NCBI GenBank assembly: GCA_963751455.1
Contig: CAVVUN010000001.1
Coordinates: 384,001 to 448,000 of the forward strand
Length of the DNA: 64,000 nucleotides
Direction: 5' to 3'
Source of the DNA: Nitrospirota bacterium
Lineage (GTDB): Bacteria; Nitrospirota; UBA9217
The notes beneath the pieces were generated by a model that was given only the letters and a program-made list of their open reading frames with translations, was not told where the DNA came from and did not search any database. The position numbers were made by a program, and so were the translations under genes. This document shows, in pieces, positions 39,459 through 52,292 of the stretch (within the stretch, counting starts at the first letter, position 1; each line of letters opens with the position of its first letter).

Positions 39459-41132
39459 ATCCCTTCTGTTCATGGCAACATAACCGGTCTCAAACCGGCT
39501 GAGATCAGGATGCTCAAGCGTCTCTACCGGAGAAAGACGCCTCCCGGTATGATCATCACCGCAGAAGCCGCCCGCGCGCTGACCGAAGCGTCAGCCGCGA
39601 TAGGAAGGCAGGTGGGATTAATCATGGACAGGGCCGGGAACATTAGGGACGTCCTCGTCGGCACAAATAAAGACATCCTGATACCGGACCTTTCCGAACA
39701 CCGTCTCGGCGCCCGGCGGCTCCGCGGGGTAAGGCTGCTACACACTCACCTCAGAGACCAGCCGCTGAACCAGGAGGACCTCACGGACCTCGCGCTGCTC
39801 AGGCTCGACATGATTGCCTCGGTGGCGGTACGCCCCGACGGTCTTCCGGGAAATATCTCCATCGCACATTTGCTTCCGCCGAACCAGGAAGAAAGAATGT
39901 ACGAAGTAGAACAACCGCGGCCGGTCCATACACTCGGTCCCGACAGCGCGGATTTCATCCCTGAGCTTGAACGCGAAATGGAGCGTGCGCAAATCGCCCG
40001 GGAAGTGGCCGTAAAAGATCGGGCGATTCTCGTCAGTGTTTCTAAAAGAAGCAGGCATGAGCAGGAAGAGTCCCTCGATGAATTGAAAGAACTTGCAAGA
40101 TCAGACGGAATCACGGTTCTTGACTCGGTAATTCAGCGGCCGCACGATATTAATCCTAAATATCTGCTGGGCGAAGGCAAGCTTAAGGAGTTGATTATCC
40201 GGTCCCAGCAGCTCGGTGCAGATCTGATCGTCTTCGGCCAGAACCTCACGCCGGCGCAGGTAAAAGCGATCGGCGACATTAGCGAAATGCGCGTAATCGA
40301 CCGCACCCAGCTGATCCTTGATATCTTTGCCCGAAGGGCGCACAGCGGAGACGGAAAGGTGCAGGTCGAACTGGCTCAACTCAAGTACCGCCTGCCGCGC
40401 CTTTCCGAGCGCTCTACGGCGTTGTCCCGTCTTACAGGCGGTATCGGAGGCAGGGGCCCGGGCGAAACGAGACTTGAAATAGACATGCGACGCGCGCGTG
40501 ACAGGATTCGAAGGCTCGAAAACCAGTTGGATTCACTGGGCAGGGCAAGAGGACAGCGCAGAGAGAAACGGATCAAAAGCTCTGTGCCGATCGTTTCCAT
40601 AGCCGGATACACGAATGCCGGCAAATCGACGCTCTTTAATGCTCTTACGAAATCGGCGGTCAAAGCCGAGAACCTCCTTTTTGCAACGCTGGATACCGCT
40701 ACCCGCAGACTGCGTTTTCCTCGTGATCGGGAAGTGGTCATTACCGATACCGTGGGTTTTATCAAGGATCTGCCTAAAGATCTTCTGGGCGCGTTCAAGG
40801 CAACGCTCGACGAAATGCAGGATGCTGACCTGATCCTTCATGTCGTCGACATCAGCAATCCCAGGTTCGAGCAGCAGATGGAGTCCGTCAACGGTCTTTT
40901 GTCGGAAATCGGACTTGATCACATACCGCAGCTTCATGTTTTCAATAAGGTGGACCTCGTGGACACGGCGTGGGCGAAGACGATTGCGGACCGCTTCAAC
41001 GGACTAGTCTGTTCGGCCGTCAAACCGGAAACGTTCGGAGATTTACTGAAAGAGATAGAAAGAATAATATGGCCGGATAAAAACCTGGAGATGAAGATCC
41101 ATGCCGTCGGTAAAGGGCATGGCGGTGGTTGA
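39459..41132 (+). CDS. hflx: GTPase HflX, long form; probable ATC start
   Basis: GYTNAGKST, LFATLD, DTVGF, NKVD; in-frame HGNITGLKP upstream of ATG 39510; GGAGG 8 nt before ATC 39459. Confidence 0.93.
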   Translation: MPSVHGNITGLKPAEIRMLKRLYRRKTPPGMIITAEAARALTEASAAIGRQVGLIMDRAGNIRDVLVGTNKDILIPDLSEHRLGARRLRGVRLLHTHLRDQPLNQEDLTDLALLRLDMIASVAVRPDGLPGNISIAHLLPPNQEERMYEVEQPRPVHTLGPDSADFIPELEREMERAQIAREVAVKDRAILVSVSKRSRHEQEESLDELKELARSDGITVLDSVIQRPHDINPKYLLGEGKLKELIIRSQQLGADLIVFGQNLTPAQVKAIGDISEMRVIDRTQLILDIFARRAHSGDGKVQVELAQLKYRLPRLSERSTALSRLTGGIGGRGPGETRLEIDMRRARDRIRRLENQLDSLGRARGQRREKRIKSSVPIVSIAGYTNAGKSTLFNALTKSAVKAENLLFATLDTATRRLRFPRDREVVITDTVGFIKDLPKDLLGAFKATLDEMQDADLILHVVDISNPRFEQQMESVNGLLSEIGLDHIPQLHVFNKVDLVDTAWAKTIADRFNGLVCSAVKPETFGDLLKEIERIIWPDKNLEMKIHAVGKGHGGG

Positions 41133-41145
41133 CACTAGCGTCGGT

Positions 41146-41877
41146 TTACTCGGCACATCGGACTATGTACTTCTGAAAAATACCGTTCTTATTTGATGTC
41201 CCGTTGTTCTTTGTTTCACTTCCATTCGACATTACATTCTGCAGCATCCTGCCGTTATCTAAAATATGTTTTATTTGTTCGCGCTGTTTTTCGTTCAACC
41301 CGCCGCTCAGCTCTTCAAGCAGGATCACCGAACAGCCGATGATAATAGTGAGCGACGATCTGAATTGGCTATGTATCCTGGCAATAAATTCGGTCTTCGT
41401 GCAGCTATCTGCTTCTGCTGTTTGCCGCGCCTGCAGGAGTTCCTTTGTGCGATTATGCACCCGGCTTTCAAGCTGCTCCTCCAACATCTGGACTTTTTCA
41501 TCCAATTCCTGCTTTTCCACGGCCTGCCTTATCTGGATCAATAATTGACCGGGATCATAGGGTTTCAGAAGATACCCGAAGGCCCAACTGTCTGCAGCTT
41601 CAGCAGCCATATCCAACGTTTCTTTTCCGGTCAGGATGATCACTTCGGGGGACAATAGATATCTGCGTCTCCTCAAAATCAAATCGACATCCTGTACATG
41701 TTCTGGTTTCTTGATGTCGATCAAAATAATCTGCGGCCCTTTTTGAGGTAAATTCGCGAGTCCTTCTGTCCCATGGCCGGCTACGAGTGTTTCATAACCC
41801 GCTCTGGTGATCAGGTCCGAAAGGGTGTTTCTCGAATGCTCATCGTCGTCGACAATAAGAACTGTCGGAATGCGCAT
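41146..41877 (-). CDS. Response regulator with degenerate HisKA-like tail
   Basis: VLIVDDD, LIDIKKP, YLLKP receiver; coiled coil LESRVHNRTKEL; KTEFIARIHSQFRSSL; no ATPase domain. Confidence 0.8.
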   Translation of the reverse strand: MRIPTVLIVDDDEHSRNTLSDLITRAGYETLVAGHGTEGLANLPQKGPQIILIDIKKPEHVQDVDLILRRRRYLLSPEVIILTGKETLDMAAEAADSWAFGYLLKPYDPGQLLIQIRQAVEKQELDEKVQMLEEQLESRVHNRTKELLQARQTAEADSCTKTEFIARIHSQFRSSLTIIIGCSVILLEELSGGLNEKQREQIKHILDNGRMLQNVMSNGSETKNNGTSNKNGIFQKYIVRCAE

Positions 41878-42034
41878 GCCTGTTTTTTCCTTCTCGCAGT
41901 TTATCTCTTAAAACAAAGATACTTTAGCATCAGGTTCCTTATTTGTCTATCCGTAGAACTACGTAGGTAAATGGACTACAAGATAAGAGCTGAAAGGACG
42001 CGCAGCTGCCAGGCCAATGACGAGATAAAAAGGG

Positions 42035-42679
42035 CTATCGAACAATACCAAGCCGGGTCGCATCAAGAACAAGATCCGCCCTGTTTCGTGCATGAAGCTT
42101 ATTCATAAGGTTTCCGCGGTGTGTTTCTACGGTTCTGACACTTATTGACAACCGCTCGGAAATATCCATACTCGAAAGCCCGTGTACGGTCATCCTGAAT
42201 ATTTCCCGCTCCCGGGATGTCAGTGAATCATACCGCTGCCGGAGAAGACCATCGGATGCACCGAACCCCGTCGAACGATCAGATCCCTCTTTTTCTTTTG
42301 GTAACCGGCCCGCTTTTTTAAGGATCGTAAACAGGAGATGCATATCAGGAGGTTTGACGGTGAAGTCATATGCTCCGTACTTCATGGCCTCTACGGCAGT
42401 CGGAATATCCCCATAGGCAGTCATAATGACAATAGGCACCGTCCTGTCTATTTTCTTCATTTCCTTCATTGTTTCAATGCCGTTCATCAAAGGCATTTTC
42501 AGATCGAGCAGTACGACGTCGGGCCTTTCTCCGTTAAAGCATTTGATTGCTGCGAATCCGTCTCCTGCCTCCTGAATAATAAATTGCTGATCAGCCGACA
42601 AACCTGCAGTGAGACCTTCTCTGGTCAGTTGGTCATCGTCTACGATTAGCAGCTTGATAGTTTGATCGTGAATACTCAT
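42035..42679 (-). CDS. Response regulator with LuxR-type HTH
   Basis: LLIVDDD, LLDLKMP; LTSREREI...ISVRTVETHR.NLM.KL. Confidence 0.93.
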   Translation of the reverse strand: MSIHDQTIKLLIVDDDQLTREGLTAGLSADQQFIIQEAGDGFAAIKCFNGERPDVVLLDLKMPLMNGIETMKEMKKIDRTVPIVIMTAYGDIPTAVEAMKYGAYDFTVKPPDMHLLFTILKKAGRLPKEKEGSDRSTGFGASDGLLRQRYDSLTSREREIFRMTVHGLSSMDISERLSISVRTVETHRGNLMNKLHARNRADLVLDATRLGIVR

Positions 42680-42740
42680 GGTTAAGAGGCATATTGCACT
42701 GTGCCGAACCCTGAGGACCTACCCAAGGAATGTGATCAGG

Positions 42741-45101
42741 TTAATGCGGCTGGCTGTCCAATATTTGCCTGACCTTTTTTAATAATGTCCCTGGATGAAC
42801 GGGCTTTGCAAGAAATGTAAGTCCGTGATCTGAGAGAGCCTTCGCATCAACGTGGTCTGCCGCATAACCGCTCATGATAATCGTTTTCAAATCCGGGCGG
42901 TATCGTTTAATCTCCTGGTAGACCCTCATCCCGGTCTTCCGGGGCATGACCATATCGAGGATGGCAAGATTGATTTTGTCTTTACTCTCCACAAACTTTT
43001 CCAGAGCTTCCTCTCCGTCAATTGCGGTGATCACGGTATATCCCGCTTCCAGAAGAATGGATTCGGTTCCTTCTCTGACATAGTCTTCATCTTCAGCGAT
43101 TAAAATCGTCTCCGAGCCGCCCCGATAATTATTTTGTTCTTCCAGTGCAGCCGGTGCCGCATCCGCATGCTGCAGTGGTATATATACGATAAAGGTTGTT
43201 CCTTTTGCCGGTTCGGTCTTCACATCGATATAACCGTTGTGCTGCTGAACAATTCCATATACGATTGACAATCCCAGGCCGGTCCCTTTGCCTATTTGCT
43301 TTGTGGTGAAGAACGGTTCAAATATTTTTTTTGTTGTTTCGGGGTCCATTCCGCAACCGGTGTCGGCCACCGATAGCGCCGCATACCCGCCCTGCACGCC
43401 GTAGCCGTGCGCGCTGATAAACTCTGTGTCCATCATGAATCGCTGCGTATCGATGATCAGTTCACCGCCGGCCGGCATGGCATCTCTTGCGTTTACCACG
43501 AAATTCATCAGGATTTGCTCTATCTGTCCGCTGTCCGCGTTTATTACGAGATTATCCTTCGTCAGTCTGATCTTCATGACTATGTCTTCACCGATTACCC
43601 TCGAAAGCATATCTCTGTTCTTTTGCACGAGTTCGTTCAGATCTACCGGTTTCGGGTTGAGTATCTGTTTTCGCGTGAACGTGAGCATGCTGCTGATGAG
43701 ACCGGCAGCCTTTTCGCTTGCCGTCATGATTTTTGTCGCCATTAATTCGAGGGCATCTTGTTTTCGAGAAAGACCGACCTGCAGCCGATAAGCATAGCTT
43801 ACTATGGCGGTTAGAATATTGTTGAAATCATGGGCAATTCCGCCTGTCAACCTTCCGACCGCTTCCATCTTCTGCGCATGCATAAGTTGCTGCTCGAGGC
43901 TTCGTTCAGTCGTCACATCGCGCAGCATGCCGCGGTACGCAACGATTTCACCGGCGCCATTACGCACGGCGGTAGCCGTAACCGCTATATGGAGCAGTTG
44001 TCCGTCTTTTTTTCGCATTTTGACGGGGAACTCCCTGATAAAGCCCTCGCGCTCTACAACCTGCTTATACGTGGCCCTCTCTTCCCGGTTCTCATAGAGG
44101 TCGTCCAGCATGTTGTGCGCCATCACTTCTTCTTTGCTCGAGCAACCGAAGAGCGAGACCCCAGCGGGGTTGATATCAATGATCCTGCCGTCCGGAGCCA
44201 TGATGAAAATCACATTAATCGACTCCTCGAAAAGCTCGCGGTATTTTTTTTCCGATTCGCGCACCGCGTGTTCAGCGCGCTTTCGCCCCTCGACCATTGA
44301 ATTAAAGGCCATGGACAGTCTGCCGATGTCATCCTGGGACTCGACGGGTATCGGCTGAATTTCTCTTCCGCTGCCAAGCTCCTTTACCTTCTCCGTAAGG
44401 TTCTCGAGAGGCTTCGTTATTTTTCTTACGCTGTAATAAACCACAATGACGCTGGAAATTATAAAAACAAGTGCAAGGACGCTATTACGCTTCAATATGT
44501 CCAGAATTTGACGGTTCAGACCTTCTTTTTCGAGAACCACCTTTACGTACCCTATTACCCTGTCCCTGGTCTCTGCTTTCTCGTTCTCGAGATACAGTGT
44601 CTCCTCGCCGTTGGTATATATTTTCAGGATGACGCTCTTTATTAACTCGACAGTCGATGAGGTTTCGCGTAATGATATTTCATGCAGTTTTGGACGGATC
44701 ATTGTCATCGAATCCCCGGTCAGGACCGTTCCCGACAAAGGCTTCCTGCGCTTTTTTTTATCAGCGCTATACAATAATTTCAACTCGGAATTATAAATAG
44801 CGACCTGTATGACGTCAGGCTCGGCAAGAACCCCTTCCGCGGCGTCCTTCAGCACCGTTTTGTTTTCCGCGAACACGCCCACCCGGGCGCTGTATGAAAG
44901 CATATTAAGAAGCGTTTCACCGTCTTTCGCAAGTTCTGCCCGGGTCCTGTTCGACTCATGCACTACGGAGAAAACGGTGTATGCAAGAAACAGGGTGATG
45001 ATGATGGCAATTACCGTGCTGAAAAGCCGGATACCGAGGTTCTTCTTTGGAGAAAAGAGCAGCTTGCTACTCCAATTTTTCGGCGTTTCTAATGATATCA
45101 T
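42741..45101 (-). CDS. Hybrid sensor histidine kinase (2TM-HAMP-PAS-HisKA-HATPase-REC)
   Basis: [43 protein letters not shown]. Confidence 0.95.
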
Positions 45102-45984
45102 TATTGAATTTTATCCCTATTTTTGAAGCTATTTTCATATTTACTGTAAGGCGGCGGGCTTCCGCATACGTTTCAAAAGGCTGTCTTTCCCCTTTTGACA
45201 GTTGTCGGGCTATTTCCGCGGCCTTTTGTCCCATGGAGAATGGATCTATGCTCAAGGCGGCTGCGGCCCCTAACTCAACGTATTTACGGGAAAAAGAGAA
45301 TATCGGCAGATTATTCTGGAAAGAAAAGAGCATCAGATAATTGATTGTATCGGCATTCAGAACGGTCGTATCAGGCAGCATCCAGAATACGTCTATCTGG
45401 TTTCGCATTTCGTCCAGTAACTCAGGCACCTGTTGAGCATTACGGACAGTCTTGATTACGAGAACGACACCGAGCGGGCGGGCAACAGCGGCGGCTTCTT
45501 CTGCAAAGTGACCTGTCTGCCGAGGGTCGGAGAGCAGGCCGATCCGGCGGACCCCGGGGAAGAGATTGATGATGGTGCCAAGGGATTCGCGCGGTGAAAC
45601 ATCCATGCTTACGCCGTATGTATTCTGCATTGATAATCCGGCAAGTTCGGACGGCATCACCATGGAATAAATCACCGGAATGTCTTTAATGGTCCTGGCT
45701 TTTCTGAATGCCTTCGTTCCTACCGCGAAAACAGCGTCAGGCCGGTTTTTAGCCACCTTCTCGATCACTCCGTTTGCCAGCTCCAGTTCCTTCACGCTGC
45801 AGTTGCAAACACTTTTAAACCCTTCAATTGCATTACTGTATGGTTTGATTTCGGATTCTCTTATGACGACAACTTCGGTAGCGTAAACAGGGAAAGCGGA
45901 CAGGAATGAGTATAAGAATATCAGCCCTGAGAGCAGGAGAAAAAACCAATTTATATGATTGTTTTTTTTCGTTTCGTTCTTCAT
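45067..45984 (-). CDS. Periplasmic ABC-type substrate-binding-like protein with no permease nearby
   Basis: Signal peptide; LFPGVRRIGLL, FWMLPDTTV, YVELGA, MGQKAAEIA, LTVNMKIA..IGI. Confidence 0.85.
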   Translation of the reverse strand: MKNETKKNNHINWFFLLLSGLIFLYSFLSAFPVYATEVVVIRESEIKPYSNAIEGFKSVCNCSVKELELANGVIEKVAKNRPDAVFAVGTKAFRKARTIKDIPVIYSMVMPSELAGLSMQNTYGVSMDVSPRESLGTIINLFPGVRRIGLLSDPRQTGHFAEEAAAVARPLGVVLVIKTVRNAQQVPELLDEMRNQIDVFWMLPDTTVLNADTINYLMLFSFQNNLPIFSFSRKYVELGAAAALSIDPFSMGQKAAEIARQLSKGERQPFETYAEARRLTVNMKIASKIGIKFNNDIIRNAEKLE

Positions 45985-46001
45985 GGAGCACGCTGACTAT
46001 T

Positions 46002-47294
46002 TTAGAGACTGTTATATCGGATATCCTGCAGGATGAACGATTGCAGCGCCTTATCGAAATACTGTTTTCTGCAATCCAGCCCCGAAAGAGAGCCTTCCCG
46101 CAGCAGATTCATATATTTACATCCTCCGAAACAAAGAGGCAGATAGCAGCAATCAAGGCACTCATCGTTCTTCCAGTTGGCGAGAACGTGAGATTCGCGG
46201 TAATCGGTCAGCCCGCTCTTAACATCACCAACACAGAAGTCCATTCTTCCGATCAATCCCGGACACTTATAGAAACTGCCGTCATAATGCACGATAATAC
46301 TGTCCTGGATCTCGATAACGCAGGGAGCAGGAGCGACGCTGGAGGTATGGTATCCTCTCTGCAATATCTCTTGCCGGAGATATACGGCCGCGTCGATGAG
46401 CCAGGGTTCGTCCGTGCAATTGCACCCTTCGCTGAAATCAGGCATGGCAAACTCGCTTCTGTCATTCAGGACCGGGTCGAATTTAACTGTGTGAATCTTT
46501 TCAGAGGTGAGCCCGATATGTGCGAGGTAGTCGAGAAGCTCCGGAAATTCACGAAAATGCTCTTTTGTGTAATTCCCGCCGACGCGTACTTGCAGCGACT
46601 CGCACACTTCCCTTATATTCTGCACGATAACATTAAAGGAGCCCTTGCCCGACTTGAAAGGCCGGTACATATTATGGATGCGTTCCGGACCGTCAAGGGT
46701 AATCTTGGCGCTTTCAAGGCCGAGTGGCTTTAACCGCTCAACGATTTTCGATGTCAGGAAGGTCCCGTTAGTCACAAGGGAAAAGCTGTATTTCAAGCCT
46801 TTGCTTTCAGCGAAATTCCCGATTTTTTTAGAAATATCCGCAATGCGCTCCGTACTCAAGAGCGGTTCTCCGCCATAAAAAGTAATCTTCAGCTCTTGCT
46901 TGTTGGAATAATTCCTGCTCTTCACAAAAGATATGAATTGGTCTGCTGTTTCGTCGGATAGATAAAATTTCCCTTTCCTTGTTCCCTCGAAACAATAAGT
47001 GCATCCCAGGTTGCAATCGAGGTTCAGGACAAGAGTGAATTTGAACGTTCTGTTGAGGGCGTTCAACTTCTGCACGTAGTCGAGCATCTCCCGCTTTTCA
47101 TTTTCGCCATTGTTGACGATAAGGTCAAGCTCCAAGAGTGTCTCCTTCTCTTCCACGGACAAGCTGCCTTTTTTAACGTCTTCAATTAAAGCGGAAGGCA
47201 CAAGAACAGCGGACGTCTTTTTTGTGGAAAAAAGAACGACAGAGTCACGCTCTTCGGCGCAGGGGTACGTTTTGGAATAGCGAGATAATTTCAT
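46002..47294 (-). CDS. Radical SAM/SPASM peptide maturase (geopeptide-maturase-like)
   Basis: CNLGCTYC, FYGGEPLL; SPASM C..DGSFYKC..CLDCCYLPLCFGGC..C; N-terminal extension; adjacent Cys-Cys peptide. Confidence 0.9.
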   Translation of the reverse strand: MKLSRYSKTYPCAEERDSVVLFSTKKTSAVLVPSALIEDVKKGSLSVEEKETLLELDLIVNNGENEKREMLDYVQKLNALNRTFKFTLVLNLDCNLGCTYCFEGTRKGKFYLSDETADQFISFVKSRNYSNKQELKITFYGGEPLLSTERIADISKKIGNFAESKGLKYSFSLVTNGTFLTSKIVERLKPLGLESAKITLDGPERIHNMYRPFKSGKGSFNVIVQNIREVCESLQVRVGGNYTKEHFREFPELLDYLAHIGLTSEKIHTVKFDPVLNDRSEFAMPDFSEGCNCTDEPWLIDAAVYLRQEILQRGYHTSSVAPAPCVIEIQDSIIVHYDGSFYKCPGLIGRMDFCVGDVKSGLTDYRESHVLANWKNDECLDCCYLPLCFGGCKYMNLLREGSLSGLDCRKQYFDKALQSFILQDIRYNSL

Positions 47295-47313
47295 ATTTAT
47301 CGGCAGAAAGAAG

Positions 47314-47338
47314 GAGGGAGAGCAATCCGCTCTCCCTC
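47314..47338 (-). terminator. Stem-loop between the peptide gene and the maturase
   Basis: GAGGGAGAGC-N5-GCTCTCCCTC 10-bp stem followed on the minus strand by CTTCTTTCT. Confidence 0.7.
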
Positions 47339-47353
47339 AAAGGGGGCTAAACG

Positions 47354-47446
47354 CTACCAATAAATTAATCCACCCCAGCAGCAGGGCCATTCAGATGCAA
47401 AGGATTCATCGATGCCCTTTTTCAAGACCACGATGCGCTTCTTCAT
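47354..47446 (-). CDS. 30-aa RiPP precursor-like peptide (not in the ORF track)
   Basis: AAGGAGG RBS; MKKRIVVLKKGIDESFASEWPCCWGGLIYW*; directly upstream of the rSAM/SPASM gene. Confidence 0.85.
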   Translation of the reverse strand: MKKRIVVLKKGIDESFASEWPCCWGGLIYW

Positions 47447-47495
47447 GTCAGTTTACCCTCCTTCGTGAATTTGACTGCTATAAAGCCGAGTATGT

Positions 47496-49313
47496 TTAAA
47501 ATGTATAGCGTATTCCTGCTTCAACCCAGCGTTCCGGATTCTGGTACGCTTCAGCAAAATATTGTGACCCGTTAAAGATATTATGTATATCCACAAAGAT
47601 CGCGAGGACTTGGTCATCATGGGTATAAAAATCATTCATCACATGGAGGTCCGTAATGAACGCATTGTATTTTCCCATGAAGAAAGGATCGGAATTCCAG
47701 TAAATATAGTGGCCCTTAAGCAGAACCTTGAGAGCTTTTTCATCGTCGTATTGAAGCCCCAGATCGTAGGTTCGCTGTGGGACATTGGGCACGGTGCCGC
47801 CGGTATTAAGATCTTTTGTATTGATAAAAGCCGCTCCTGCGGAAAGAGAAGTGTGATATGCAGGCGCGGTTTTCAATTCGATTTCCATCCCTTGTCGCCT
47901 TTGCTTTTCACTGTTTACGGGGAGGGCGCCTGTAATAGCATCCCTTATTTCGTGCCTGAACCCGGAGAACTTCAGCCAGAAGTATTTCGAGGCGGCGGTT
48001 TCGGCCCCCACCTCATAAGAGGAGACCTTCTCCATCTTCAAATCAGGATTTGCGTTAGTAGCCGAGAGAGGCGGAATATTGAAACCCCGGGCAGAATACG
48101 CCCTCAACACAGTTGAGTCAGCCAGTTTGTAAGTTATGCCAAAACTCGGACTGGTAAAGTCTCCATTCGAGTTCGTATGGTCCCTGCGGATTCCGGGTGT
48201 AGCGGATAACCTGCCGAATGACATGGTATCATTGATAAAAAACGCTGATTTTGTTAATTTCTGCTCTCCGCTGGTCAGCGTATTCGACTCCATGGTCCTG
48301 GTATCAGAATCGACGCCTGTTACAACATTATGCAGTGCATTTTTCCAGAAGAGCTTTGCGGTGGATCCGTAACCGGAATCTTCGAAGTTCTGTTGCATAA
48401 GCTGTGAACCGGACGTAAGCTGGAAATAAAAAAAATCGTAGGTCTGGTGTAAGCGCCATAAAGAAAGGTTAATGGAAGTCTGTTCATTTAGTGTCGAATT
48501 CATTGAAACTGCCGTTGACAATCTCTCAAATTTATCATTTCTATACATATTTCGCGACAGATCCTCAAACTCCCCTCTTGAAAGATTGTCATACCCGACA
48601 GTGAAAAGGGCGCTGGTATTCTTTGAAAGATCGTAGCTGAGCTTTGCATAGGTATTTTTGCCCGAGAAATCATTATGAGGCTTGAAACCGTCCGTCTGAA
48701 GCCTGCCTGCATTCACATAGTATCCGAAGCCTCCCTGCCTGCCGGACGTTTCGGCGCGAATGTCGCCGGTGTTCCTCTTGCCGTACGAGAGGGATGTGGT
48801 TGTTTTCGGCGCCTGGTCGCTTGCAGATTTTGTAATAATGTTGATAACGCCTCCAAGGGCCGACCCCCACGCTGAAGATGCAGGTCCCTTGATGATCTCT
48901 ATTTTTTCTACATACTGGACAGGAAAAGATGCTACGTCAGAAACATTATTAGAAAGATTGTTCAATGGGATTCCGTCCATGAACACGGAAACATGCCGGC
49001 TGTTGAACCCCTGGATCGAGGCCTGTGAAACACTCCCCGGGCCTCCTGTCATCAATACCTGAACGCCGGTGATTGAATTCAACACATCGGCCGGAGTATG
49101 AGCATTCATAAGCTCAATGTCCGAAGCCGTGATCACCGTTACGTTCTCCGCCACCTGAGATACCGGTTTTGGACTCCGGGAAGGAGAAACTACGACAAGT
49201 TCTTCTTCTTTGAAATACAGCAGAAGAAAACTTCTTTCCTCATCAGGTTGGGTAAAGGCGGTTGATATTGATAATGCACTAAAAAGTGCAACACCCGTTA
49301 AAATCTTATACAC
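47496..49313 (-). CDS. TonB-dependent receptor
   Basis: Plug ENVTVITASDI...VEKIEIIKGPASSAWGSALGGVINIITK; C-terminal AGIRYTF. Confidence 0.93.
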   Translation of the reverse strand: MYKILTGVALFSALSISTAFTQPDEERSFLLLYFKEEELVVVSPSRSPKPVSQVAENVTVITASDIELMNAHTPADVLNSITGVQVLMTGGPGSVSQASIQGFNSRHVSVFMDGIPLNNLSNNVSDVASFPVQYVEKIEIIKGPASSAWGSALGGVINIITKSASDQAPKTTTSLSYGKRNTGDIRAETSGRQGGFGYYVNAGRLQTDGFKPHNDFSGKNTYAKLSYDLSKNTSALFTVGYDNLSRGEFEDLSRNMYRNDKFERLSTAVSMNSTLNEQTSINLSLWRLHQTYDFFYFQLTSGSQLMQQNFEDSGYGSTAKLFWKNALHNVVTGVDSDTRTMESNTLTSGEQKLTKSAFFINDTMSFGRLSATPGIRRDHTNSNGDFTSPSFGITYKLADSTVLRAYSARGFNIPPLSATNANPDLKMEKVSSYEVGAETAASKYFWLKFSGFRHEIRDAITGALPVNSEKQRRQGMEIELKTAPAYHTSLSAGAAFINTKDLNTGGTVPNVPQRTYDLGLQYDDEKALKVLLKGHYIYWNSDPFFMGKYNAFITDLHVMNDFYTHDDQVLAIFVDIHNIFNGSQYFAEAYQNPERWVEAGIRYTF

Positions 49314-49564
49314 GATATCCGGGTCCTTTCTATATTTATTTTCTTAAAAAAGAGTTATTTCTGATAATAAAGTATTAGACAAAGAGGTATACTTTTAAAC
49401 TATATCATAACCGCTAAAAATTGCAAAAATAAAAAACAATAATTTTAAGCTTTAACCGAAAGTAGAGAGGGGTCGTATATGAAGGTTTTTATTGATTAAA
49501 TTGGCAGCGCTACCTAATTAATCAATAATTACAATAAGATATTGTATTTATTAGGAATAACGGG

Positions 49565-50902
49565 TTATTTCCCGCCAATGGAAAGTTCTTTAATAAGAAG
49601 TGAGGGACTGCCGATCCTGCCTGAGAAGCGGATATCGGAGCCGACAGTATCCACGTTCATCATGAGGTCCAGGATGTTTCCTGCGATTGTGACCTCGCGT
49701 ACCGGATACGCTTTTTTACCATTCTCTATCCAGAAACCGGTTGCGCCGATAGAAAAGTCTCCGGATATCGGGTTTGCCGTATGCATACCCATGACATCGA
49801 TGACATAGAGGCCTTTGCCCGCCCGCTTCATCAGGTTTTCAACCGTCGTGGTTCCGGGCTCTATATACAGGTTCGTTATGCCCACGCCCGGAACGCCCTT
49901 GAATCCGCCCCGCATACCGTTCCCGGTGGACACTGTTTTGTCCTTGTTTGCGGTATACATGTTATGAAGGAACATTGAGAGAACGCCCTGATCGATGACT
50001 TTTTTCTTTTGCACAGGCACTGTCTCGTCATCCGAAGGCGCCGTTCCAAGTCCGCCTTCAAGCAAACCATCATCGTATACAGTTACCGCCGAGGAAACAA
50101 TCTGTTGGCCGAGCTTTCCGATCAGCAGCGATTTTCTTTTTTGAACGTTCTCGGCCGAAAACCCGCTGGCTATCATGGCAAGAAATTCCTGCGCGACGAT
50201 CGAATCAAGTATCACGGGAGCCTTCGTCGAATCGATATGCCTGGCGCCGAGCAGCTCTACTGCGCGCCGGGCAGCCTTGCGGCCGACCTGCTCGATCTCA
50301 AGCTTCCCGTAAAACCGGTTCACATCGAACTCGGATCCCGCTTGAGACTCGCCCTTATCTTCCGCGACGACCTCGATGCTCGATGAACAGGCGGTGCTTT
50401 CGTACTCCACCTCTGCGCCGTTCGTGTTCACGATGATTGTCCGGGCTGCGGAGAAACTTGCCGATGCTTTCCGTATCCGTTTTATCCTGTGGTCGACGGC
50501 AAAAGCCTCGCGTTCCATCGACATGACACGCTCTATTTTTTCCCGCTCGCCCAAGCGAACCAATTCGGGATCATAGACAGATACTGTCCGATACGGCGAC
50601 AGGGATTTTGGTGCGAGCGCCTGCCAGGGATCGAGCTCGGCGTTCTCAGCGTTTGTTATCGCCGAGCGTACAAATGTCGTAACCGCCTTGTCGGTAAAAT
50701 CGGTGGCAAAAGCGAAACCCGCGCGGCCGTTAACGAACACCCTGAGACCGGCGCCGATATCCTGAGCGCGGTCGAACGCGTCTACCTTCTGCTCTTTTAT
50801 TTCGACAGTCGTGGAAGAAAAAGATCGAAGGAAGACGTCGGCTTTATCAACGTTCGAATTTCTGCACAGGTCGAGTATTTTTACTGCCGTCTTTCTGTGC
50901 AT
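49565..50902 (-). CDS. pmbA: TldD/PmbA family protein (PmbA-like)
   Basis: GAGLRV..GR.GFA, PSDDE, STGNG.RG, NLYIEPG, NPISGDFS, TIAGN. Confidence 0.85.
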   Translation of the reverse strand: MHRKTAVKILDLCRNSNVDKADVFLRSFSSTTVEIKEQKVDAFDRAQDIGAGLRVFVNGRAGFAFATDFTDKAVTTFVRSAITNAENAELDPWQALAPKSLSPYRTVSVYDPELVRLGEREKIERVMSMEREAFAVDHRIKRIRKASASFSAARTIIVNTNGAEVEYESTACSSSIEVVAEDKGESQAGSEFDVNRFYGKLEIEQVGRKAARRAVELLGARHIDSTKAPVILDSIVAQEFLAMIASGFSAENVQKRKSLLIGKLGQQIVSSAVTVYDDGLLEGGLGTAPSDDETVPVQKKKVIDQGVLSMFLHNMYTANKDKTVSTGNGMRGGFKGVPGVGITNLYIEPGTTTVENLMKRAGKGLYVIDVMGMHTANPISGDFSIGATGFWIENGKKAYPVREVTIAGNILDLMMNVDTVGSDIRFSGRIGSPSLLIKELSIGGK

Positions 50903-50938
50903 CTGGCCCACTCTCACGTGAAGACGGAAATCAAACAA

Positions 50939-51307
50939 TTAATCGAAATAGCTGGCGGAGGCGGTATCCGATTCCCACACGGTAACACTGCTGACTTCAA
51001 GGTTTTCATCGTTGATTTTCTTTGCCATGGTGTCATAGATCCATTTTGCCAGGTTCTCGGACGAAGGATTGATTTGGGTGAAAGGAAATATATCGTTCAA
51101 AAAGGTATGCTCGAGCTGGTCAAGCACTTCCCTGAGATATTTTTTCAGGTCCTGAAAATCAACCGCAAGCCCCTGCTCGTTCAGCCGTTCGGCCGTCACC
51201 GCCATGGTTACGCGCCAGTTATGGCCGTGGAGCCGTTCACATTTGCCACGATAGCCGCGCAGCTGATGCGCAGCAGCGAATTTGGATTCGATCATGAGTT
51301 CGTACAT
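50939..51307 (-). CDS. queD: 6-carboxytetrahydropterin synthase
   Basis: FAAAHQLRGY.GKCERLHGHNW, NPSSENLA, VWES. Confidence 0.95.
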   Translation of the reverse strand: MYELMIESKFAAAHQLRGYRGKCERLHGHNWRVTMAVTAERLNEQGLAVDFQDLKKYLREVLDQLEHTFLNDIFPFTQINPSSENLAKWIYDTMAKKINDENLEVSSVTVWESDTASASYFD

Positions 51308-51396
51308 GATGGAAAAAATATATGGCATACACCGGTAAAAGTCAATACATAAAAAAATCTTGCAAAAGCCGATAAATTAATATATCATTTTAGGTA

Positions 51397-51879
51397 ATGG
51401 AAGTAATGAAAGAAGAGTCGTCCAGGGCATCTATCGAGCAGCAGTTCCTGTCGCAGGCCCAGACAAGCGGTGTTAACGTTTTTATCGGCCAGATGAATAA
51501 GACCGAGCATCAGGGAACTATCCGGGATATCGGCCGGTACGAAATCAATATCGAAGAAAACGGCAGGATCGTGACCATTCTGAAGCAGGAAATTTCCTAC
51601 CTCTCCGTTTTCCAGCCCCTCCTCACGGTTGCTCCCGTGTCGACAGCCCAGAATACGGCGGAAGAACCCTCTGATACGGCCACCACCGGAAGGCCGAACA
51701 TCCAGCAGGAATTTCTGGACAAAGCGATCAGGGAAAATCAGCAGCTCACGTTCTTCCTCATAAACGCCCAGCGAATAAAAGCCACCATCGAGGCATACGA
51801 CAGTTTTACCATTCTGCTCAAAGAAGGCGGCAGACAGCATTTATATTATAAACATTCGATCACGACGATCAATCGTTGA
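51397..51879 (+). CDS. Protein with two tandem Hfq/Sm-like domains
   Basis: Domain 2 NIQQEFLDKAIRENQQLTFFLINAQRIKATIEAYDSFTILL...HLYYKHSITTI; domain 1 SIEQQFLSQ...GTIRDIGRYEINI...TILKQEISYL is more divergent. Confidence 0.75.
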   Translation: MEVMKEESSRASIEQQFLSQAQTSGVNVFIGQMNKTEHQGTIRDIGRYEINIEENGRIVTILKQEISYLSVFQPLLTVAPVSTAQNTAEEPSDTATTGRPNIQQEFLDKAIRENQQLTFFLINAQRIKATIEAYDSFTILLKEGGRQHLYYKHSITTINR

Positions 51880-51887
51880 GGTGAACG

Positions 51888-52292
51888 ATGGAAACAAATC
51901 TCCTCGATAGAATGCTGCAGACATATCTGGCTGATCAGATTCCGGTAACCATTACTCTCCAGAACAAAATACGGGTATCCGGCAAAATCAGAGCTTTTGA
52001 CAGTTACGTTATAATACTCGAGGATCAGAAGCGCGAGATCGTGTATCGCCATGCCGTTTCCTGCTTAAGCATGACGGGACATGACGAGCAAAGGCGTTCT
52101 TCTCCTGTAACCGTAATCCGGCAGCCACAGGCGAAAAGCGCAATGAAAAATTCCAAACCCCCTGTTCACAAAGCCAAACCCTCACCCCCGCCTCAGGTCG
52201 TTCTTGCGGCATCCTCAAACGAAACATGTATCAACAGCAGCATGAAAGAAGGTCTTCTCAAGTGGATGCAGGAGCAAAGGGCGGCAAAATAG
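51888..52292 (+). CDS. Hfq-like protein with long C-terminal tail
   Basis: NLLDRML...PVTITLQNKIRVSGKIRAFDSYVIIL...IVYRHAVS. Confidence 0.8.
   Translation: METNLLDRMLQTYLADQIPVTITLQNKIRVSGKIRAFDSYVIILEDQKREIVYRHAVSCLSMTGHDEQRRSSPVTVIRQPQAKSAMKNSKPPVHKAKPSPPPQVVLAASSNETCINSSMKEGLLKWMQEQRAAK

Follow-up and report, generated by a model that had tools for sequence, protein, structure and literature searches.

Our study of a stretch of 64,000 nucleotides from a Nitrospirota bacterium (GenBank assembly GCA_963751455.1, contig CAVVUN010000001.1, positions 384,001-448,000; hereafter the window) revealed that the locus at window positions 41146-49313 carries a real and conserved cassette of five parts, found in two phyla. 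These parts are a TonB-dependent receptor, a short peptide with two adjacent cysteines, a radical S-adenosylmethionine (rSAM) enzyme predicted to modify it, a periplasmic binding protein of the family PF04392, and a sensor kinase. The best reading of the cassette is, in our opinion, a circuit that makes and senses a peptide and in which the N-terminal tail of the receptor relays the signal, a reading to which we give a little less than an even chance. Two of its elements can be judged alone: the pairing between the tail and a periplasmic partner is likely, and the peptide is fairly probably the ligand of the receptor. The following features carry the argument (window coordinates; RRE, recognition element of RiPPs, peptides made on the ribosome and modified after translation).

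47496..49313, minus strand: TonB-dependent receptor with plug and barrel, 605 aa (PF07715 and PF00593).
49173..49250, minus strand: N-terminal tail of the receptor, residues 22-47, acidic/hydrophobic, running into a TonB-box-like motif; proposed docking segment, from its conservation, its co-variation with the binding protein and the match of tail type to partner type.
47456..47463, minus strand: ribosome-binding site of the peptide gene, AAGGAGGG, 9 nt upstream of it (from the sequence).
47354..47446, minus strand: Cys-Cys precursor peptide, 30 aa, with leader RIVVLKKG, 10-residue spacer and core CCWGGLIYW (open reading frame, ORF, and profile match).
47314..47338, minus strand: terminator-like hairpin of 10-11 bp between the peptide and enzyme genes (fold and conservation).
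46002..47294, minus strand: geopeptide maturase of the radical SAM/SPASM kind, whose N-terminal domain is RRE-like (TIGR04280).
45067..45984, minus strand: permease-less periplasmic protein of PF04392, kin of aromatic-amino-acid binders, with a remodelled cleft (Pfam, model, alignments).
42741..45101, minus strand: hybrid sensor kinase with sCache-like, HAMP, PAS, HisKA, HATPase and receiver domains (Pfam).

The original prediction, made from the sequence alone, described seven co-oriented minus-strand genes, and we found these ORFs in the order claimed, with domains confirmed by Pfam and NCBIfam. The unannotated peptide ORF has the sequence quoted and the strong ribosome-binding site attributed to it. 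The binding-protein gene follows after a 17-nt gap and overlaps the kinase gene, by 35 nt. The prediction also likened the peptide and the enzyme to the geopeptide pair of NCBIfam. For the enzyme this is borne out by a full-length match to TIGR04280 (residues 1-427, 574.7 bits for a cut-off of 400). For the peptide, TIGR04229 is the sole NCBIfam match, with a score of 12.3 bits (E 0.11) that falls below the cut-off of 30, a value reached by none of the nine peptides tested (best 23.3). Conservation of the ORF is clear from a profile built with the peptides of 68 other loci, which matches it at 39.8 bits (E 8.7e-10); the next unrelated hit among the genome's 46,351 small ORFs scores 13.2 bits. 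The arrangement is that of the pair, in that the TIGR04280 enzyme has, directly upstream, a short Cys-Cys peptide with a conserved leader.

Matches to the maturase model were present in 32 of 301 genomes from the phylum of the window and in 30 of 351 genomes from the phylum to which a Geobacteraceae genome belongs. A scan of genome contigs found no relative when made with the single protein and 434 matches when made with an alignment. We fetched all loci from both phylum searches, the best 80 of the 434 contig matches and one further locus, which after removal of duplicates left 126 distinct maturase loci; detection profiles were built from 40 of them. Among the 68 loci with at least 4.5 kb on both flanks, the receptor is present in 66, the binding protein in 61 and the sensor region in 59, and all three occur together in 59. 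The receptor is found at 91 of the 94 loci with at least 2.5 kb upstream. Matches to the peptide profile occur in 22 of the 301 genomes, all of which also have the maturase (one frameshifted). The linkage between maturase and signalling genes that had been proposed is thus recurrent, and neither of the outcomes named as damaging to the original prediction, missing synteny or an unconserved peptide ORF, came about. One might still regard the peptide and the enzyme as passengers of an ordinary receptor/periplasmic protein/kinase cassette, kept by linkage alone, and such relay cassettes are indeed widespread without a maturase. We find this very unlikely, because the link holds whatever the arrangement of the genes (of 62 loci, 34 are co-directional, 21 divergent and 7 of other kinds), in two phyla and even where the periplasmic protein is replaced, and because only 3 of the 94 maturase loci lack the receptor.

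The receptors themselves form a group of their own. The receptor of the window is below every NCBIfam receptor cut-off, its best matches being BtuB and siderophore models. In a tree built without the tail and without receptors shorter than 560 aa, a single clade with support 100 unites the geopeptide receptors; it has 71 rows, of which 68 adjoin a maturase. These receptors have a conserved segment of about 25 residues, the tail, between the signal peptide and a motif that we take to be the TonB box; a Pfam scan of the receptor found no folded N-terminal signalling domain. The type of tail goes with the type of periplasmic partner. Some cassettes have a YfiR protein in place of the PF04392 protein, and a tail pattern typical of them is present in 10 of 12 YfiR-linked receptors and in none of 104 PF04392-linked ones. 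In a hold-out from the second phylum the fixed pattern matched 4 of 18 rows, so a tail profile with a threshold of 8 bits was used instead, which assigned 15 of the 18 to the YfiR type and none to the binding-protein type. Two loci of the geopeptide clade, L063 and L067, have receptors with the YfiR-type tail and no PF04392 gene nearby, keep peptide, enzyme and receptor, and carry a co-oriented YfiR gene upstream (at about 6 kb and 2 kb, respectively); their tails score 7.5 bits, just below the threshold, and 11.0 bits. The reverse swap is seen at L166, whose receptor is linked to PF04392, falls within the YfiR receptors (65% to that of L180) and lacks the YfiR-type tail. Receptors at three divergent loci have a plain TonB box and no binding protein nearby. 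Five loci have the tail and no adjacent binding protein, and four of these genomes hold one elsewhere, which is consistent with the relay.

Co-variation points in the same direction. Distances were compared across 40 loci with all five parts intact and then across 62 loci; kin were treated as independent, so the significance of these tests is overstated. Distances of the tail correlated with those of the binding protein at r 0.63 in the 40 loci, against 0.32 for the receptor's own barrel, and the partial correlation of 0.31 was the best among 43 segments of the receptor. Across the 62 loci this partial was 0.35, against 0.06 for the enzyme, and it reached 0.45 in the 21 divergent loci. The segment of the binding protein that tracked the tail best was residues 231-250, which ranked first of 17 in both the 34 co-directional and the 21 divergent loci. 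These residues line the cleft of the protein, whose model shows an intact two-lobed fold with a predicted local distance difference test (pLDDT) score of 91. They include S232 and P248, which, mapped from alignments, correspond to the two ligand-specificity positions described for CD0873, VC_1101 and SP1069 in PMC6816091. Where the binders 3LKV, 3LFT and 6HNI have polar motifs in common, the protein of the window has other residues; taken with the near-invariance of F231 (60 of 62 binding proteins), this leads us to infer that binding of free amino acids was lost. Nor is the protein a member of the TrpX type, given a score of 64 bits where model NF041285 demands 390, the replaced ligand motifs and the absence of a recurrent permease at the loci. 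A search of the ESM Atlas returned generic PF04392 clusters only. At residues 60 and 62 the binding protein has a CxC pair (43 and 36 of 62, respectively) that might serve as a disulfide or bind metal.

The original prediction had the receptor import the modified peptide and the binding protein capture it and present it to the kinase. Such a route would parallel the presentation by LuxP to LuxQ. The same synteny would be expected from such a hand-off, the two-lobed fold is intact, no permease figures among the recurrent neighbours of the maturase loci, and relatives of the binding protein bind aromatic residues while the core of the window is rich in Trp and Tyr. Yet aromatic residues occur in only 50 of 102 cores, and no co-variation is seen between the cores and the binding protein (partial r of 0.04 with p 0.24 across 40 loci; -0.01 with p 0.60 across 62). 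Moreover, L063 and L067 have no binding protein nearby and carry the unrelated YfiR in its place, and the segment lining the cleft follows the tail of the receptor. We therefore consider the hand-off quite unlikely. The original prediction was right on the identity and the linkage of the genes, and probably wrong on which molecule the binding protein holds.

What the enzyme makes can be predicted in part. Precursors have a RIVVLKKG-like leader, most commonly 10 residues before the Cys pair (43 of 59), and cores that range across loci from aromatic to basic. The pair is adjacent in 100 of 102 cores, a figure partly built in by the demand for a Cys motif at extraction. Small residues (Gly, Ala or Ser) occupy the third position after the first cysteine in 70% of 98 distinct cores and the fourth in 82%; both are small in 56 of the 98, against 11.3 in within-core shuffles (max 23). 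An acidic residue follows within six residues of the pair in 1 of 102 cores, which sets these peptides apart from ranthipeptides of the PapB/QhpD type, as does the score of the PapB model (140 bits for a cut-off of 340). The model of the enzyme (pLDDT 80.8) has CteB, TigE and SuiB as nearest folds, and CteB, a thioether synthase, is its best sequence match among solved structures. Three cysteines of the rSAM motif CxxxCxxC (C94, C98 and C101) and seven of the SPASM domain (C325, C344, C379, C382, C388, C392 and C408) are invariant in 115 of 115 maturases. The core patterns suggest two four-residue thioether rings from Cys to alpha carbon, Cys22-Gly25 and Cys23-Gly26, the alpha carbon being proposed because of the small residues at i+3. 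Four-residue sactionine rings are known from streptosactin, as described in PMC9389541.

Some precursors and enzymes depart from this scheme. Precursors at eight loci (L014, L018, L024, L084, L087, L088, L091 and L132) have long Lys/Ala repeat extensions of about 50-100 aa and retain the Cys pair and the short core. The cores of L090, L127 and L108 are variants, two of them CWWC and the third apparently with a single Cys. One geopeptide maturase, P0037, has an N-terminal methyltransferase region (PrmA/PRMT-like matches), which suggests a methylated variant, and two others (L202:5019-7100 and L203:8120-10300) have in common a C-terminal extension of about 260-290 aa without a Pfam match.

The invariant Cys pair and the dedicated TonB receptor also suit a metal chelator like methanobactin, which would be secreted and re-imported loaded through the receptor, the relay reporting on uptake. 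Methanobactin operons are described as pairing a Cys peptide with a TonB transporter, in some cases one with a signalling extension (PMC3621798), and the best matches of our receptor, albeit all below cut-off, are to models of BtuB and siderophore receptors. Against this, no exporter recurs, whereas that study lists multidrug and toxic compound extrusion (MATE) pumps in 13 methanobactin operons, and of the methanobactin-type genes, MbnB/MbnC-type enzymes and a MATE exporter were not found, only the rSAM enzyme being recurrent. Searches for a riboswitch in eight loci and the window, for a simple Fur-like pattern in 62 upstream regions and for Rfam families in positions 40500-51500 had no match, and no metal permease recurs. 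Finally, the cores are hydrophobic to basic and closure of thioethers would use up the thiols. We see a rather slim chance for a chelator.

Returning to the circuit, its mechanism could be as follows. Receptor, peptide and enzyme travel together, with a hairpin 3' of the peptide gene. This hairpin, noted in the original prediction, is confirmed at 47314-47338 (z -3.0, 4 of 200 shuffles equally good), and of 83 loci, 74 have a stem of at least 8 bp 3' of the peptide gene, compared with 27 among 252 control windows from coding sequence; the hairpin likely puts the message of peptide and receptor in excess. The RRE-like domain would bind the RIVVLKKG leader and the enzyme would close two rings, from Cys(i) to the alpha carbon of i+3. 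Removal of the leader and export are the unexplained step, for which we assume housekeeping export or release on lysis because no dedicated protein recurs. The product would bind the co-encoded receptor, and ligand and TonB pulling together would expose or release the tail (matches to TonB in the genome of the window are weak, two being above cut-off). Co-variation and natural swaps suggest that the tail then occupies the cleft of the PF04392 protein. This protein would work like YfiR in the YfiBNR system, partitioning between the outer-membrane protein and the sensor domain and thereby switching the kinase. The output is plug-and-play, as seen in gene content, with LuxR-type, sigma-54 or other regulators. 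A more ambitious account, which we regard as unlikely on balance, adds that the product is an rSAM-cyclised peptide pheromone used by diderm anaerobes (Nitrospirota and Geobacter-type bacteria), its core varying between strains, and that a TonB receptor dedicated to it reads it at the outer membrane. The 25-residue tail of this receptor would be the tethered ligand of an amino-acid-binding protein repurposed to gate the kinase, with PF04392 and YfiR proteins as exchangeable parts of a plug and socket, producer-less genomes as eavesdroppers, and a signal that may be released on lysis.

Several observations weigh against the make-and-sense circuit, beyond the overstated significance already mentioned. 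In the co-directional loci the partial correlation between tail and binding protein was 0.27 (the largest of 300 permutations gave 0.29), and the segment just after the TonB box did better, at 0.50. With three concordant independent swap pairs and none discordant (p 0.25), significance is out of reach. Nor is it established that the tail was swapped twice independently within the geopeptide clade, as a single origin of L063 and L067 was not rejected (p 0.33 in the approximately unbiased test). A close binding protein lies elsewhere in the genome of L067 as well, and a more distant one in a single tail-less genome. Across 40 loci the peptide core and the receptor co-varied with a partial of 0.136 (p 0.047), which shrank to 0.038 (p 0.24) across 62; in this larger set the core tracked the enzyme most, and weakly so (0.097, p 0.03). 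None of the receptor segments stood out against the core (best 0.18), and we do not claim co-evolution of peptide and receptor. No palindrome common to the upstream regions of the 62 receptors was found as a mark of autoregulation. The chemistry has its own difficulty, in that an eighth cysteine of the SPASM region, C291, is present in 105 of 115 maturases and may fill the open iron site that CteB is proposed, in PMC8326336, to use. The neighbourhoods of the 126 loci, to which the count was confined, have no recurrent exporter or protease, in line with the original prediction that the cluster has neither. The best candidate for the dedicated export or processing that characterises peptide quorum sensing is a major facilitator superfamily (MFS) gene near 7 of the 126 loci; pmbA lies near 1 of 126.

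The last difficulty concerns cassettes without a producer. Four genomes that are 98-100% complete have a close receptor, binding protein and kinase and no peptide or maturase was found in them (the maturase being absent at E 1e-20 in three, and in the fourth, whose receptor is frameshifted, absent from the matches of the phylum search). Such genomes may be eavesdroppers, or else the ligand of the receptor may not be the peptide. More distant receptor/PF04392/sensor cassettes without a maturase are common, from which it follows that the relay does not need the peptide. Alternatively, the peptide might stay in the cell and modulate the receptor or the relay internally or at the envelope, the receptor sensing an unrelated ligand from the environment. 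The persistence of producer-less cassettes would fit, as would the lack of a recurrent exporter or protease, the fragile co-variation between core and receptor, and the long Lys/Ala repeats of some leaders, which suit an intracellular role. But the receptor clade hardly occurs outside peptide loci (68 of 71 rows are at one), the diversity of cores on a fixed scaffold fits variants of a signal, and the peptide sequence has no recognisable secretion signal by which to reach the receptor. We give an internal modulator a small chance of being right. The four peptide- and maturase-less cassettes, L135, L137, L138 and L153, are candidate listener-only loci.

Comparison with known systems helps to place the cassette. 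The peptide-enzyme pair and a receptor/YfiR-like family pair are already catalogued in databases. The former, TIGR04280 (a hypothetical equivalog) and TIGR04229, matches the window by a full-length enzyme and a Cys-Cys precursor directly upstream; it differs in that our peptide is below the TIGR04229 cut-off and in that the model names are silent on a receptor or relay. The latter, the receptor TOL_0244 (NF053590) with the YfiR-like TOL_0243 (NF053591), has the same succession of receptor, periplasmic protein and kinase and a short partner-specific tail. However, the receptor of the window scores 63.8 bits where that model demands 645, the binding protein has no match to NF053591, and the YfiR-linked receptors that we fetched from non-geopeptide loci fall outside the geopeptide clade.

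YfiBNR of Pseudomonas aeruginosa resembles the relay in combining an outer-membrane protein, a soluble periplasmic protein and a HAMP sensor, and YfiR can stand in at two geopeptide loci. YfiB is described as sequestering YfiR (PMC4655355; PMC3375315). The input in the window is a TonB receptor instead of the OmpA/Pal-like lipoprotein YfiB, the periplasmic protein is a two-lobed PF04392 member instead of the PF13689 protein YfiR, the output is a hybrid kinase instead of a GGDEF protein, and a RiPP is co-encoded. The relay would thus work like YfiBNR without being a member of it, the proposed outer-membrane sequestration resting on co-variation and swaps. YfiR/kinase operons lacking YfiB are noted in PMC3375315, in whose accessible text the term 'TonB' does not occur.

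TonB transducers such as FoxA/FoxR/FoxI and MbnT/R/I similarly send a signal inwards through the receptor N-terminus, for which they use N-terminal signalling domains, as outlined in PMC11637429. They differ in having a folded signalling domain where the window has a tail of about 25 residues, and an anti-sigma/sigma pair where it has a soluble binding protein and a kinase. SCIFF/CteB ranthipeptides and type 2 sactipeptides (streptosactin, QmpA) are the closest parallel for the enzyme, with an RRE-rSAM-SPASM architecture and CteB as nearest structure; their counterpart in the window has adjacent Cys-Cys donors, no acidic acceptors, a diderm host, neither transporter nor protease, and a co-encoded outer-membrane receptor. 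SCIFF peptides reportedly have a role in quorum sensing, which we met only as a cited title.

If the proposed circuit is true, it provides a role and a predicted chemistry for the uncharacterised geopeptide family, and a candidate ligand for a widespread receptor/periplasmic protein/kinase relay. Among the papers that our literature searches listed, judged by title and abstract and with subscription journals and supplements outside their scope, none dealt with the geopeptide pair or with this relay. Modified-peptide signalling is known mostly from monoderm bacteria and would be extended to diderm anaerobes of sediment and groundwater. The circuit would also be an additional way for a signal to cross the envelope, with neither an anti-sigma factor nor a lipoprotein involved.

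The remaining features of the locus lie downstream of the kinase and upstream of the receptor.

42035..42679, minus strand: receiver-LuxR response regulator, a variable output (Pfam; type present near 29 of 126 loci).
41146..41877, minus strand: receiver protein lacking an ATPase domain, with one weak HisKA-like stretch; outside the conserved core (Pfam).
49399..49427, minus strand: candidate for a sigma-70-like promoter (extended -10), within the AT-rich gap that separates pmbA from the receptor gene, from a consensus match only (9/12).

Regulators of the LuxR type (29) and sigma-54 regulators (27) are the commonest extra neighbours among the 126 loci. Sigma-54-like sites upstream were found at 2 of 62 (shuffles mean 0.4, max 3), which gives no shared sigma-54 control. 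The product of 41146-41877 had been read as a second regulator; its receiver domain is there, the rest amounting to the HisKA-like stretch, and a homologue covering residues 1-182 exists at one other distinct locus. As for pmbA, said to be immediately upstream on the same strand, the strand is correct, and the gene is set apart by an AT-rich gap of 251 nt that has a sigma-70-like site of its own. We rejected pmbA as a dedicated protease, since of the 126 loci it adjoins this one only.

The genome of the window has other related cassettes. Contig C6 holds at about 168000-176200 (L048) a second complete geopeptide cassette with a different core, whose receptor, enzyme, binding protein and kinase are each broken by frameshifts, by assembly error or decay. 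TonB receptor/YfiR/kinase cassettes without a RiPP lie at C2:406268-408678 (L180) and C1:653568-656237 (L185), both with the YfiR-type receptor tail. Elsewhere, the whole cassette is in tandem duplicate at L194, and L089 has a second receptor 3' of the enzyme. A maturase subfamily below the cut-off (L218, L219, L220, L221 and L222) has no binding protein nearby and, where a receptor is present, one with a plain TonB box and no tail; L220 and L222 have a single-Cys peptide downstream of the enzyme. Finally, two neighbouring Hfq-family genes lie on the plus strand of the window at 51397-52292. The first apparently has two Hfq-like repeats, with a Pfam match on the second repeat only, and the second gene has a long C-terminal tail.

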